Shown: positions 40,930-51,394, counted from the first letter of the stretch. The stretch is DNA of 64,000 nt from Escherichia phage ECp13 (PP274704.1); one strand, 5' to 3'. Made by a program: numbers and translations. The notes: generated by a model not told the origin, from the letters alone.

Positions 40930-41187
40930 ATGAAAACTTTCAAAGAGTTTGCTACAAAAACCACTATCACTGAATCTTCTCACGGTATGGAAGTAAAGCT
41001 TGGAATGGCTTTAGCTGAAGCTGAGCGTCTTTTCTCTCGTATTAAAGAACTTGCTGCTGCAGTCGATCCTTCATCTTTTAAAGGAGACCAAACTAAAGTT
41101 AAAGCACTTTTAGCATTATGCTCCGATGCAGGAGAAATTGCTAAAAATGGTTCTAAGATGAAGAAACGATTAGAAGATTTAAAATAA
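40930..41187 (+). CDS. internal-protein-like small protein with capsid-targeting-like N-terminus
   Basis: 85-aa ORF at the T4 ipI position; MKTFKEFATKTTITE resembles the T4 IP targeting sequence (MKTYQEFIAE) with an I-x-E gp21-type cleavage motif. Confidence 0.6.
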   Translation: MKTFKEFATKTTITESSHGMEVKLGMALAEAERLFSRIKELAAAVDPSSFKGDQTKVKALLALCSDAGEIAKNGSKMKKRLEDLK

Positions 41188-43224: not shown

Positions 43225-43232
43225 TATAAATA
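43225..43232 (+). promoter_or_regulatory. late promoter (TATAAATA) for the IP-like gene at 43273
   Basis: TATAAATA on plus strand, 41 nt upstream of the ATG. Confidence 0.55.
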
Positions 43233-43272: not shown

Positions 43273-43746
43273 ATGAAATCATATGCTCAATTTTTAAATG
43301 AAGCGGTGTTAAATGAAGCATCTAGCACCGAAATTCAAGCCGTCGCAAAAGCAGCCATTGCAGCGGGTAAATATTCCTATAAAGATGCTTCTGACGAATC
43401 ACGATTCCAATTTGCTCGCGACATGAAAGCAGAAGGATTTACGGGAAATGCGGTTAGTATGGCCTGGAAAAGTCTAGTTGCTACTGGCGCTGCTTTTGCA
43501 AAGGCTTCGGGTAAACCTGCTCCTAAAGCAGATCCTAAAGCTGCACAAGAAAAAAATATCGTTAAAGGAATTATCGCTAAATATGAAGCTATCCTTAAAG
43601 AGCTTTTAGTAATCAAAACCGAAGGCCAAAAGTTAGCCCGTGCTTATAGTTTCAAAGATAATCCACATGTTCACTCTCTTGAGTATGTTGAAGACATTCA
43701 AAAAATTATTAAAGACCGCATTTGGTCTGCTAAACAAATCAAATAA
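43273..43746 (+). CDS. internal-protein-like protein with capsid-targeting-like N-terminus
   Basis: 157-aa ORF; MKSYAQFLNE-A resembles the 10-residue T4 IP targeting sequence ending in an L-x-E cleavage motif; late promoter upstream. Confidence 0.6.
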   Translation: MKSYAQFLNEAVLNEASSTEIQAVAKAAIAAGKYSYKDASDESRFQFARDMKAEGFTGNAVSMAWKSLVATGAAFAKASGKPAPKADPKAAQEKNIVKGIIAKYEAILKELLVIKTEGQKLARAYSFKDNPHVHSLEYVEDIQKIIKDRIWSAKQIK

Positions 43747-47758: not shown

Positions 47759-48289
<531 letters not shown>

Positions 48290-48293
48290 AGTT

Positions 48294-48323
48294 GTTTACT
48301 TTCTCCTAGAATTGTGATAGTAT
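48294..48323 (+). promoter_or_regulatory. early sigma70-type promoter for denV
   Basis: GTTTAC (48294-48299), 18 bp, TAGTAT (48318-48323); 25 nt upstream of denV ATG. Confidence 0.55.
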
Positions 48324-48348
48324 ATTAACAGTTACTTGGAGGGATAAA

Positions 48349-48765
48349 ATGACTCGTATTAATTTGACTTTAGTATCTGAACTTGCTGATCAACATTTAA
48401 TCGCAGAATACCGTGAACTGCCGCGTGTTTTTGGTATAGTTCGTAAACATGTTGCAAATGGTAAGCGGGTTAAAGATTTTAAAATATCTTCCGAGTTTAT
48501 TTTAGGTTCTGGTCATGTCACGTTCTTTTACGATAAGTTAGAATTTTTGCGAAAGCGTCAATCAGACATTATAACGGAATGCTTAAAACGTGGGTTCAGT
48601 ATAAAAGATACTGAAGTTCCTGACATCAGCGATATTCCAGCAGAATGGAAAAATGATTATAATCCATGCAAATCAGCTATTAAATTGAGCCAACAACGAC
48701 TCGATGAAAAAATTTTAATGAAGCCATACTGGTATAAATACTACGGTAAAACTATTTACATTTAA
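48349..48765 (+). CDS. denV: endonuclease V (pyrimidine dimer DNA glycosylase)
   Basis: 138-aa [31 protein letters not shown]...; length and sequence recognised as T4 endonuclease V. Confidence 0.92.
48733..48740 (+). promoter_or_regulatory. late promoter (TATAAATA) inside 3' end of denV, serving the downstream IP gene
   Basis: TATAAATA 35 nt upstream of the IP ATG at 48775. Confidence 0.55.
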
Positions 48766-48774
48766 AGGAAACAC

Positions 48775-49248
48775 ATGAAAACATATCAAGAATTTATCAC
48801 TGAAGCAGCTATTAATTCTCAAATTATCGCTGAATCTTTTATTGATCTTTTGAAATTTAAAAAAGGTCAAAAAATCACTGCTGTATTGGATGATGGTACA
48901 GAAGTTGAGATGGATGTACAGGGATATAATTATGCAGTAGATGGAAAACTGTATAATAAATCTCATGCTAAATTTGATTCATTTGACGATTTTGTTAATA
49001 CAGTTGAAGATGAAAAAACTCGTAGATCCATTGCAACTGGCGACGCTAAGGTTCTTATGGCACATGGTCATGAACGTATCCGCGCGAAGCAGAATAAAAT
49101 GGGTGAAGATAATTTTGCATTAGTTGGTTATCAATCTGGTAAACAAACTTATGGTTATCAGCGTACTGCTACCATGTATAACAAAAATGGTAAAATCGCT
49201 TTCGTGAATAGCAAAGGTTCTATTCAGTACGTCAAATCATTCAAATAA
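48775..49248 (+). CDS. internal protein (IPII/IPIII-type) with canonical capsid targeting sequence
   Basis: 157-aa ORF starting MKTYQEFITE-A, matching the T4 IP targeting sequence and gp21 cleavage site. Confidence 0.75.
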   Translation: MKTYQEFITEAAINSQIIAESFIDLLKFKKGQKITAVLDDGTEVEMDVQGYNYAVDGKLYNKSHAKFDSFDDFVNTVEDEKTRRSIATGDAKVLMAHGHERIRAKQNKMGEDNFALVGYQSGKQTYGYQRTATMYNKNGKIAFVNSKGSIQYVKSFK

Positions 49249-49401
49249 GCAAATAAGAAATATGGGAACAAGCTGGACCTCATGATTCTATGAGGGATTC
49301 CCGCCAACCTGTAATAAGGTCGAGCCCGAGTGCGGTAATGGGTAAATACAGAAATGGACAATTCATGCGCCATGGAATGGCCCAAATTTAGAGAGAATAA
49401 A

Positions 49402-49941
49402 ATGAGAACATTTTTAACTGGTCCTTATCTATCCCTGATGAATGCTTTTACATACCATTCTGATGCTAGAGTAGAAGAAATTTGTAAAAACGATTATATC
49501 CTACCATTTGAAGACTTACTCAAACAGTATTGCACACTTCGACTAGATGGTGGACGTCAATCCGGTAAATCAACTGCTGTGACTAACTTTGCTGCTAATT
49601 GGCTGTATGATGGTGGAACAGTTATTGTTCTTTCTAATACTTCAGCTTACGCTAAAATTTCTGCAGGCCACATTAAAAAAGAATTTTCTCGTTATTCTAG
49701 TGACGATATTCGATTCCGCTTATTTACTGATTCTGTCCGTAGTTTTGTTGGTAATAGAGGCAGCAAGTTCAGAGGTTTATCGCTTTCGCGGATTTTGTAT
49801 ATAATCGATGAGCCGGTTAAATCTCCCGATATGGATAAAATTTACGATATTCATATTGAAACTGTACAATACTGTTGCAATAGTAAATGTTGCACTGGTG
49901 GTATTACTCGTCCGCAGTTTTTCGTAATCGGAATGCAATGA
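49402..49941 (+). CDS. small P-loop NTPase
   Basis: 179 aa from ATG 49402 (RBS AGAGAGA); Walker A GGRQSGKST and Walker B-like LYIIDEP. Confidence 0.55.
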   Translation: MRTFLTGPYLSLMNAFTYHSDARVEEICKNDYILPFEDLLKQYCTLRLDGGRQSGKSTAVTNFAANWLYDGGTVIVLSNTSAYAKISAGHIKKEFSRYSSDDIRFRLFTDSVRSFVGNRGSKFRGLSLSRILYIIDEPVKSPDMDKIYDIHIETVQYCCNSKCCTGGITRPQFFVIGMQ

Positions 49942-50267
49942 TGACAGACACACAGCTTTTCGAATATCTTTATTTTTCGCCAAAAACTATTAAAAATAAA
50001 TTGGTGAATCATTTTGAAATTTTGGCAAATAACAACGTCTTGAGCGAATTTTATCCTAAGCAATACAAATTACAAAAAGGTGTATTCAAAGGATGCAGAG
50101 TTTTGTGTACTGCTCCTAATGCAAGATTAATGAATAAAATTCCATATTTTACCATGGAATTTATTGATGGACCTTTTAAAGGACTAATCACCCAAAGTTT
50201 AATGGCATATGATTCTGAGCCATTTTTAATTAAAGAACAGTCTTGGATAAATTTATTTTCTAATTGA
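49938..50267 (+). CDS. hypothetical protein
   Basis: 109 aa from ATG 49938 (ATGA overlap with upstream stop). Confidence 0.5.
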   Translation: MMTDTQLFEYLYFSPKTIKNKLVNHFEILANNNVLSEFYPKQYKLQKGVFKGCRVLCTAPNARLMNKIPYFTMEFIDGPFKGLITQSLMAYDSEPFLIKEQSWINLFSN

Positions 50268-50273
50268 GGTTAT

Positions 50274-50636
50274 ATGAAAGCATATCAAATTCTTGAAGGC
50301 ACACATAAAGGTACTATTTATTTTGAAGATGGTATTCAAGCACGAATTATTGTTTCTAAAACCTTTAAAGAGGACTCTTTTGTAGACCCAGAAATTTTCT
50401 ACGGTTTGCACACCCGTGAAATTGAAATTGAACCACAGCCTACAGTTAAAATTGAAGGTGGTCAGCACCTGAACGTTAACGTTCTGCGTCGTGAAACTCT
50501 GGAAGATGCAGTTAAGCATCCGGAAAAATATCCGCAGCTGACCATCCGTGTATCCGGTTATGCAGTTCGCTTTAACTCTCTGACTCCGGAACAGCAGCGC
50601 GACGTTATCGCTCGTACCTTTACTGAGAGCTTGTAA
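50274..50636 (+). CDS. autonomous glycyl-radical cofactor (GrcA/YfiD-like)
   Basis: 120-aa ORF; C-terminal half carries the glycyl-radical motif [25 protein letters not shown] and matches E. coli GrcA as recalled; T4 encodes a homolog (Y06I) between regB and denV; 3' half uses host-like codons (CTG, CGT, CCG). Confidence 0.8.
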
Positions 50637-50857
50637 TGGCAAAGATAATTATTGAAGGTTCTAAAGATGTGTTAAATGCTTTCGCCGAATGGTTTAGTAA
50701 TTCAGGCGAACAGCAATTTAATGAAGCGTGGACCATGGGTGATATTGATGGAATTTATCCTACGACAGAAATTTCTGTTCAAGGATATGGCATTCATGAA
50801 CCTATTCGTTTAGTTGAATATGATTTATGTACTGGTGAGGAAGTCAAATATGATTGA
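50636..50857 (+). CDS. hypothetical protein
   Basis: 73-aa ORF, ATGA-type coupling to upstream gene. Confidence 0.5.
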   Translation: MAKIIIEGSKDVLNAFAEWFSNSGEQQFNEAWTMGDIDGIYPTTEISVQGYGIHEPIRLVEYDLCTGEEVKYD

Positions 50858-51116
50858 AGATATTAAAGGTTATAAGCCACATACTGAAGAGAAAATTGGT
50901 AAAGTGAATGCTATCAAAGATGCTGAAGTTCGTTTAGGACTTATCTTTGACGCTTTATACGATGAATTCTGGGAAGCACTGGATAATTGTGAAGACTGTG
51001 AATTCGCGAAGAATTATGCTGAAAGCCTCGATCAGTTAACTATTGCTAAAACGAAACTCAAAGAAGCCAGTATGTGGGCTTGTCGTGCTGTGTTCCAACC
51101 AGAGGAAAAATATTAA
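50850..51116 (+). CDS. hypothetical protein
   Basis: 88 aa from ATG 50850 (RBS GAGGAAG). Confidence 0.5.
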
Positions 51117-51394
51117 TGGCTCAATTAAGCGCAGGGTTTGGTTATGAGTATTATACTGCCCCTCGTCGTGTATCTGTTGCTCCTAAGAAAATTCAAAGTC
51201 TTGATGACTTCCAGGAAGTAGTCCGTAAAGCTTTCCAGGACTATGCGCGTTATCTTAAAGAAGATTCACAGGACTGTCTAGAAGAAGATGAAATTGCTTA
51301 CTATGAGCAGCGTCTTGAACAGCTTAAAAACCTACATGAGGTTCGTGCAGAAGTTACAAAGTCTATGAATAAATTGATTAGATTTAAAGAATAA
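51116..51394 (+). CDS. hypothetical protein
   Basis: 92 aa from ATG 51116 (RBS AGAGGA; TAATG overlap). Confidence 0.5.

Follow-up and report, generated by a model that had tools for sequence, protein, structure and literature searches.

The stretch of Escherichia phage ECp13 (PP274704.1) analysed here, hereafter the window, comprises 64,000 nt and is Tequatrovirus DNA; its bases 49300–51200 share 99.8% identity with Shigella phage Sfk20 and 97–99% with many T4-like phages. The subject of this report is a stand-alone open reading frame (ORF) located between vs.7 and vs.5 and encoding 120 amino acids (aa). The surrounding gene order, vs.8-vs.7-[ORF]-vs.5-vs.4-vs.3-regB-vs.1-vs, is the same as in T4 and thus identifies the ORF as the orthologue of T4 vs.6 (Y06I), whose RefSeq name is "autonomous glycyl radical cofactor GrcA". 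The product differs from T4 Vs.6 at two positions (T47A and R73H; 118/120 aa identical) and is a full-length member of PHROG 1209. It matched Pfam Gly_radical (E = 2.6e-18), the GrcA structure PDB 6OWR (8e-42) and residues 697–759 of pyruvate formate-lyase (PFL; 4.9e-26), and the large glycyl-radical enzymes were matched over their last ~60 residues only. The gene sits within an operon-like run of ORFs, and the last base of its stop codon is the A of the next ATG, so that the following ORF starts at 50636. Very probably, the most conserved segment of this phage gene was overwritten by DNA of the host gene grcA, and this happened recurrently and host-specifically.

In pairwise alignment, a run of 175 nt (50452–50626) matched grcA of E. 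coli O157:H7 without a mismatch. BLASTN found grcA matched in 5,426/5,426 complete E. coli genomes at 97.8–98.9% identity, over bases 179–363 of the ORF only. Upstream of the tract, identity to grcA fell to about 46%, and the alignment contained no grcA homology beyond the vs.6 stop codon. Two synonymous differences from grcA, at 50627 and 50631 (grcA positions 375 and 379), lie within the last three codons. Over the 57 complete codons of the tract, 0/171 bases differed from E. coli, and the C-terminal 60 residues were identical to E. coli GrcA (60/60). The sequence-only reading had recognised this half as matching E. coli GrcA and had taken it to be derived from the host; both statements held, at 98–99% nucleotide identity. 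A megablast search of the whole window against the 5,426 complete E. coli genomes matched nothing outside 50452–50640.

The composition of the gene changes along with its identity. GC content is 33.3% in the 5′ half and 50.3% in the host-like block, and GC content at third codon positions (GC3) rises from 20% to 43.9%, a value attained by only 0.4% of 1,419 segments of 57 codons from the long ORFs of the window. Leucine is encoded by CTG in five of five cases within the block (8% window-wide) and proline by CCG in three of three (15% window-wide). The AT-rich 5′ half and host-like 3′ codons previously noted from the bare sequence were thus confirmed by the counts. Among residues shared with E. 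coli, 58/60 use the same codon in this phage, compared with 25/51 and 27/48 in phage copies without host-like DNA. The sharing of codons is far beyond chance, because these equally conserved copies share only about half of the codons for identical residues. Relative to E. coli, synonymous divergence (dS) amounts to 0 within the tract but is saturated (about 2.1) in the 5′ half.

The second place matched by the block in most E. coli genomes is the paralogue pflB. As donors, pflB and tdcE were ruled out by their 75–80% identity, against 98–99% for grcA. An assembly artefact or contamination with host reads was also ruled out: hundreds of independent phage records, the T4 reference among them, have the block in frame, and with over 500 such records a chimeric assembly is unlikely. 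An Rfam scan of 48600–51200 gave a single sub-threshold chance match, and an RNA element within or close to the gene was rejected. The GC-richer spacer at 49240–49360 folded no better than shuffled sequence (z = 0.11), and consensus scans for promoters and terminators, considered as a cause of the GC step, found no more sites than in shuffles.

Table 1. Features of the vs.6 locus and of the internal protein gene upstream, in window coordinates.
Feature	Coordinates	Strand	Remarks
vs.6 / Y06I orthologue, GrcA-type autonomous glycyl-radical cofactor	50274..50636	+	120 aa; stop codon included
Phage-type AT-rich 5′ half, residues 1–59 and first base of codon 60	50274..50451	+	counterpart of the disordered half of GrcA that binds cleaved PFL
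Putative host-derived conversion tract, residues 61–117, structured glycyl-radical domain	50452..50626	+	175 nt identical to E. coli O157:H7 grcA
Gly95 codon in RVSGYAV, predicted glycyl-radical site	50556..50558	+	equivalent to GrcA Gly102 and PFL Gly734 by alignment
Phage-type 3′ end: third base of codon 118, codons 119–120 and stop (GAG AGC TTG TAA)	50627..50636	+	
N-terminal MKAYQILE, resembling a capsid targeting sequence	50274..50297	+	
GAGG, putative ribosome-binding site	50266..50269	+	from the sequence; overlaps the vs.7 stop codon TGA (50265–50267)
Internal virion protein gene with capsid targeting sequence (MKTYQEFITEA...)	48775..49248	+	DUF7412, 3.7e-95; PHROG 3155 'internal virion protein'

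The abrupt change of GC content and codon usage at 50452, the near arrival of the host-identical block at the stop codon, and the failure of the 60-residue N-terminal half alone to match any NCBIfam or Pfam family would all fit a domain fusion, in which illegitimate recombination attached a 3′ fragment of the host gene to a phage coding region for an unrelated N-terminus and so created a new chimeric protein. The sequence-only reading had described the gene in this way. However, the N-terminal half aligns with that of GrcA. BLASTP aligned ORF residues 22–120 with GrcA 28–127, and positions 25–126 of the TIGR04365 profile aligned with residues 20–120. A multiple alignment (MAFFT) paired MKAYQILEG with M-ITGIQITKA and the ARIIVSKT stretch with ARCIVAKAGYAED (ARCIVAKA), so that both proteins have an ARxIV(S/A)K..ED motif and, near the N-terminus, an xQI motif. 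This homology is weak, and on its own the N-terminal half matches only the phage family PHROG 1209.

Members of PHROG 1209 from T4-like, T5-like, jumbo and Aeromonas phages contain this same N-terminal half in full-length proteins whose C-terminal halves are not encoded by host-like DNA, which also speaks against a fusion. Relatives were found by tblastn in 1,591 phage records, mostly at full length, from T4-like genera, T5-like Demerecviridae, jumbo phages of the Asteriusvirus type and Aeromonas phages. Base-by-base comparison covered 18 phage representatives and about 85 host alleles; here the tracts of Karam-, Krisch-, Slopek- and Pseudotevenviruses and of T5-like, jumbo and Aeromonas phages differed from every host allele compared at 15–37% of DNA positions, with the protein conserved. 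Phage-type synonymous states persist in the last three codons: for codon 118, the window and four other T4-like genera have GAG where E. coli has GAA. Klebsiella phages show the same block boundaries with a different donor species. Among phages, the 5′ half is under purifying selection (ratio of non-synonymous to synonymous divergence, omega, 0.05–0.28).

Since the 5′ half too is homologous to GrcA, since full-length homologues in many phage lineages have no host-like DNA, and since the three final codons are phage-type, the host patch appears to have replaced a homologous internal segment, the most conserved one, of a pre-existing phage gene. The whole of Vs.6 is a GrcA homologue, best described as belonging to a phage subfamily of GrcA. 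Joining to an unrelated N-terminus is largely refuted, and we give it a very small probability. The host origin of the 3′ half consequently survives from the earlier description of the gene, but the separate N-terminus does not.

A host-like 3′ half could also have arisen if the whole host grcA had been captured once, long ago, and had then decayed unequally along its length, the disordered N-terminal half diverging fast and selection holding the radical domain fixed, with no recent recombination. The constraint on the C-terminal half of the protein is indeed very strong in all phages (non-synonymous divergence, dN, 0.07–0.13 from E. coli), and the N-terminal half is much freer. Nevertheless, this explanation is refuted, because protein constraint gives no protection to synonymous sites, and its probability is close to nil. 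Karamvirus and T5-like copies keep the protein, yet their dS from hosts is saturated (1.6–2.2); these are the two unconverted copies for which it was computed, with a Karamvirus tract value of about 2.2. In the window, synonymous divergence jumps from nothing inside the tract to saturation beside it, the tract uses codons in the manner of E. coli rather than of the phage, and Klebsiella phages carry the K. pneumoniae allele. Taken together with the patch-like structure of the gene, the tract was evidently overwritten very recently with host grcA DNA.

Comparison with Mosigvirus RPN187 revealed the same discordance between two phages. The 5′ halves differed at 22/180 positions and the tracts at 1/171 (Fisher's test, p = 3.5e-6), with dS values of 0.39 and 0.023, respectively (17-fold less in the tract), while flanking DNA was 70–92% identical. 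The sole tract difference falls at grcA position 213, where E. coli strains vary: G, the O157:H7 state, is found in the window and the common A in T4, NR1, JK45 and RPN187. The tract of JK45, a Shigella phage classed as Tequatrovirus, showed seven differences from the O157:H7 allele; leaving position 213 aside, four of six are G/C to A/T changes, as expected of an older patch decaying towards phage composition. In its 5′ half, JK45 differed at 8/180 positions from Mosigvirus RPN187 and at 18–19/180 from the window or T4. The closeness of JK45 to Mosigvirus at vs.6 suggests phage–phage exchange at the locus.

The block was also present in the Klebsiella phage JIPh_Kp122 (Jiaodavirus; gene nt 181–353), with another donor. 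Its tract differed at 7/171 positions from grcA of K. pneumoniae (96% identity; a single strain) and at 20/171 from that of E. coli (88%), and 20/171 is also the distance between the two bacterial tracts. The K. pneumoniae allele was taken from a 5.37-Mb chromosome labelled as a plasmid (CP125156.1) in a plasmid collection. In the same collection, the grcA of a K. aerogenes record (LR134122.1) is frameshifted, probably by a sequencing error. Phage records with 95–99% identity numbered 515 for E. coli grcA and 106 for K. pneumoniae grcA; among the matches listed, the latter were all Klebsiella phages. No Salmonella-type block was found in phages: matches to Salmonella grcA reached at most 84%, and those were E. 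coli-type tracts. Tequatroviruses that came from Salmonella, Yersinia or Shigella as isolation hosts have the allele of E. coli.

Among eighty loci from uncultivated viral contigs in IMG/VR, six had an E. coli-type tract, with 1–3 differences, and a single one had a tract of the K. pneumoniae type, with 5 differences. The remaining loci had 24–48 differences, except for L132, L114 (misaligned, with a shorter C-terminus) and L183 (truncated). L132 (IMGVR_UViG_2706794630_000006, a 19-kb contig) has a GrcA-like gene with the host-type junction RVEGGQ, and its tract departs from a Yersinia allele at only 15/171 positions; this might be a bacterial gene, on a contig classified as viral, or a further copy of host type.

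It is well supported by these alleles that patching is recurrent and host-specific, with an E. coli-type tract in Tequatro- and Mosigviruses and a K. pneumoniae-type tract in Jiaodaviruses. At least two independent host-to-phage events have evidently taken place, because Klebsiella phages carry the K. pneumoniae-type and coliphages the E. coli-type tract. Further than this, vs.6 might be a standing hotspot at which lytic T-even phages containing 5-hydroxymethylcytosine (hmC) repeatedly copy the radical domain from their current host, with the updating under selection because the spare part would thereby stay matched to the host's PFL and its activating enzyme (PFL-AE). We regard this extension as tentative and rather doubtful; as to its adaptive part, neutral conversion driven by homology would give the same pattern.

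Regarding function, the T4 protein provides the closest precedent. According to PMC8683613 and PMC13450708, T4 Y06I and E. coli YfiD (GrcA) are activated by PFL-AE and restore PFL that oxygen has cleaved at Gly734. The rescue by Y06I goes back to Wagner et al. (2001), cited here through PMC8683613, and the earlier statement that T4 encodes a spare part for oxygen-damaged PFL is correct on that citation. The same source describes YfiD residues 1–60 as disordered and needed both to bind cleaved PFL and for efficient installation of the radical, and residues 61–127 as structured, duplicating PFL 693–759. The host patch begins at phage residue 61, equivalent to GrcA residue 68 and seven residues inside the structured half. 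By this alignment the phage appears to keep its own docking half and to use the host's exact radical domain.

The most probable account starts from a complete, old phage homologue of grcA, in which the segment 50452–50626 would have been overwritten through homologous recombination or gene conversion with the chromosomal grcA of E. coli, leaving the 5′ half and the last three codons phage-type. The route, frequency and adaptiveness of this recombination are presumptive. The diverged N-terminal half (residues 1–60) would dock Vs.6 on oxygen-cleaved host PFL, the host activase PFL-AE would place a radical on Gly95, and the C-terminal domain would stand in for the lost C-terminus of PFL. Conversion of pyruvate to acetyl-CoA and formate could then resume in micro-aerobic infected cells, and formate-dependent anaerobic synthesis of deoxynucleoside triphosphates (dNTPs) by the phage ribonucleotide reductase NrdD would probably be sustained as well.

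Several points weigh against this account. Phage–phage spread of one E. coli-derived patch could be partly behind the near-identity of tracts between genera. Recombination with the host chromosome must be rare in T-even phages, because they degrade host DNA, and we infer its molecular route. Owing to the divergence of the N-terminal half, the TIGR04365 score of 153.4 bits falls below the 170-bit NCBIfam cut-off for the GrcA equivalog, which is a classification threshold and not a biochemical feature. The function is transferred from T4 Y06I by orthology, so that installation of a radical by PFL-AE and rescue of oxygen-cleaved PFL are putative activities for Vs.6 of this phage. Finally, the link to NrdD and formate draws on synteny in other phages and on textbook biochemistry.

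This synteny consists of vs.6 homologues directly beside nrdD, nrdG or nrdC in SE_PL, A4 (jumbo), PX29 (Aeromonas) and Krischvirus UPWr_E1/SAP; in Tequatroviruses, vs.6 lies in the vs cluster instead of an nrd module. Class III ribonucleotide reductases use formate as reductant. Support by Vs.6 of anaerobic dNTP synthesis via formate is consequently plausible as a candidate role. Alternatively, the true client of Vs.6 might be not host PFL but NrdD itself, the phage anaerobic ribonucleotide reductase, which is a glycyl-radical enzyme cleavable by oxygen. The adjoining nrd genes would suit such a role, and a part in nucleotide metabolism was proposed in an earlier comparative paper (PMC1524935). 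However, the radical domain is identical to that of GrcA and closest to PFL 697–759, the donor of the patch is grcA and not nrdD, and T4 Y06I is reported to rescue PFL (PMC8683613). The synteny is equally explained by formate that PFL supplies to class III reductases. We consider NrdD an improbable client.

The N-terminus raised a separate question. The sequence-only reading had noticed that MKAYQILE loosely fits a capsid targeting sequence (CTS), and had asked whether the protein is packaged. On such a reading, Vs.6 would be led by this peptide into the prohead core, cleaved by gp21 behind ILE8 and, as a spare part, injected along with the DNA. MKAYQ agrees with four of the first five CTS residues, including Y4, one of those important for targeting in the CTS of IPIII, and I6-L7-E8 fits the gp21 site (L/I)-x-E. 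A start of the form MK.YQ is rare and occurs in only two ORFs of the window, the other being the internal protein gene at 48775. The published CTS form is MK(T/S)(Y/F)x(E/Q)F(I/L/A)x(E), in which residues 4 and 7 matter for targeting (PMC9026906). In Vs.6, however, the match is limited to positions 1–5, and the E/Q-F that each of the three CTS genes of the window (40930, 43273 and 48775) has at positions 6–7 is absent. A cleavage-type triplet within residues 3–12 is common (19/84 ORFs), and Karamvirus, T5-like and Aeromonas homologues have N or K in place of E8.

Similar starts occur in phages that are not T4-like, namely MKAYQ(S/N)LKSG in T5-like phages, MKAYQIMSG in a Morganella phage and MKALQILKG in Aeromonas phage PX29, with looser forms in jumbo phages. 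MKAYQ/xQIL is thus a family-wide N-terminal motif that can be aligned with MITGIQITKA of bacterial GrcA. The loose resemblance that had been noted is real, but it is that of a family motif lacking E/Q-F at positions 6–7.

Expression signals and virion data gave a concordant picture. The late-promoter motif TATAAATA, with which a packaged protein would be made during prohead assembly, lies 34–40 nt upstream of the CTS genes at 43273 (motif at 43225) and 48775 (motif at 48733–48740), whereas a motif scan found none for vs.6 on the plus strand between 48741 and 54617 (nearest at 48733 and 54618), and hence none within 1.5 kb upstream of the gene. In mass spectrometry of caesium chloride (CsCl)-purified Jiaodavirus virions, the Vs.6 homologue was represented by five credible peptide-spectrum matches (PSMs), compared with 66 for an internal protein (PMC13119998 supplement). 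All five lie in the C-terminal half; four are identical to host GrcA and one is phage-specific, Klebsiella GrcA reading VEGGQ... at this place (PMC13119998). No N-terminal-half or semi-tryptic peptide of the homologue was present in these data, and RegB, DenV and other non-structural proteins were detected at a similar trace level (PMC13119998). The text of the T4 head mass-spectrometry supplements does not mention Vs.6. Packaging into the capsid is unlikely, because a late promoter is missing and the virion data are not convincing; the injected spare part suggested by the N-terminus was not borne out, and we attach very little probability to it.

The window's own internal protein genes differ from the T4 set ipI/ipII/ipIII. 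CTS-type N-termini were found in the plus-strand ORFs 40930–41187 (MKTFKEFATK...), 43273–43746 (MKSYAQFLNEA...) and 48775–49248, and PHROGs assigned two of these as internal head or virion protein. Within 47795–49941, the order is e - denV - DUF7412 internal protein - vs.8, compared with e - ipIII - ipII - denV - vs.8 in T4; the internal protein cassette therefore lies on the other side of denV and belongs to a different protein family. The vs.8-like ORF (49354–49941, plus strand) has a P-loop, GGRQSGKST, and weak sub-threshold matches to Terminase_6N and AAA. Its orthologue is labelled 'large terminase subunit' in some GenBank records, which looks like over-annotation.

The annotation itself is ordinary, because the gene and its biochemical role are known from T4, and we regard the mosaic as a further case of a phenomenon already known. 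The searchable literature yielded no account of the host-identical block in vs.6, although an earlier mention is possible. The observation is of interest since a T-even phage that destroys host DNA carries 175 nt identical to a chromosomal gene, with no other E. coli match in 64 kb. The E. coli and K. pneumoniae patches are direct evidence of repeated recombination between lytic phages and their hosts at a homologous auxiliary gene, as for cyanophage psbA. With its edge near the boundary between disordered and structured regions, the patch also offers natural chimeras, a phage N-terminal half with a host radical domain, in which the function of the GrcA N-terminus, so far unclear, could be probed. 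The patch sequence may serve as a marker of the recent natural host of a phage lineage and, if vs.6 is indeed a hotspot of host copying, would be a built-in record of it.

Among known systems, T4 Vs.6 is the closest: it has the same position in vs.8-vs.7-vs.6-vs.5, the same length of 120 aa and the E. coli-like 3′ block (2/171 differences in the T4 tract). It differs in having the common A at grcA position 213, where the window has G, and one private non-synonymous change. E. coli GrcA (YfiD, 6OWR) shares the layout of a ~60-residue N-terminal half followed by a glycyl-radical domain, with 60 C-terminal residues and 175 nt identical, whereas the phage protein is 7 residues shorter and its N-terminal half has diverged (dN about 0.8; ~46% nucleotide identity). 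As a member of the GrcA-type class, Vs.6 has the RVSGYAV loop domain and the small stand-alone size (~14 kDa for the class), and lacks a catalytic ten-stranded barrel and a Cys-Cys site, with an equivalog score below the cut-off. The T4 internal proteins IPI, IPII and IPIII (CTS MKTYQEFIAE) resemble Vs.6 in the MK-x-Y-Q start and (I/L)-x-E; Vs.6 differs from them in lacking E/Q-F at positions 6–7 and a late-promoter motif and in not being abundant in the Jiaodavirus virion data.

The mosaic structure of vs.6 has its counterpart in psbA of cyanophages, where host segments lie inside phage-type copies of an auxiliary gene (Sullivan et al. 2006, PMC1484495). Both cases concern T4-like phages, with a segment of host identity embedded in a phage-type gene and discordant divergence along it. 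The vs.6 case differs in its enterobacterial hosts and in its carriers, hmC-containing T-even phages that degrade host DNA, and its patch always covers the same structural domain and is identical or nearly identical to the allele of the current host species.

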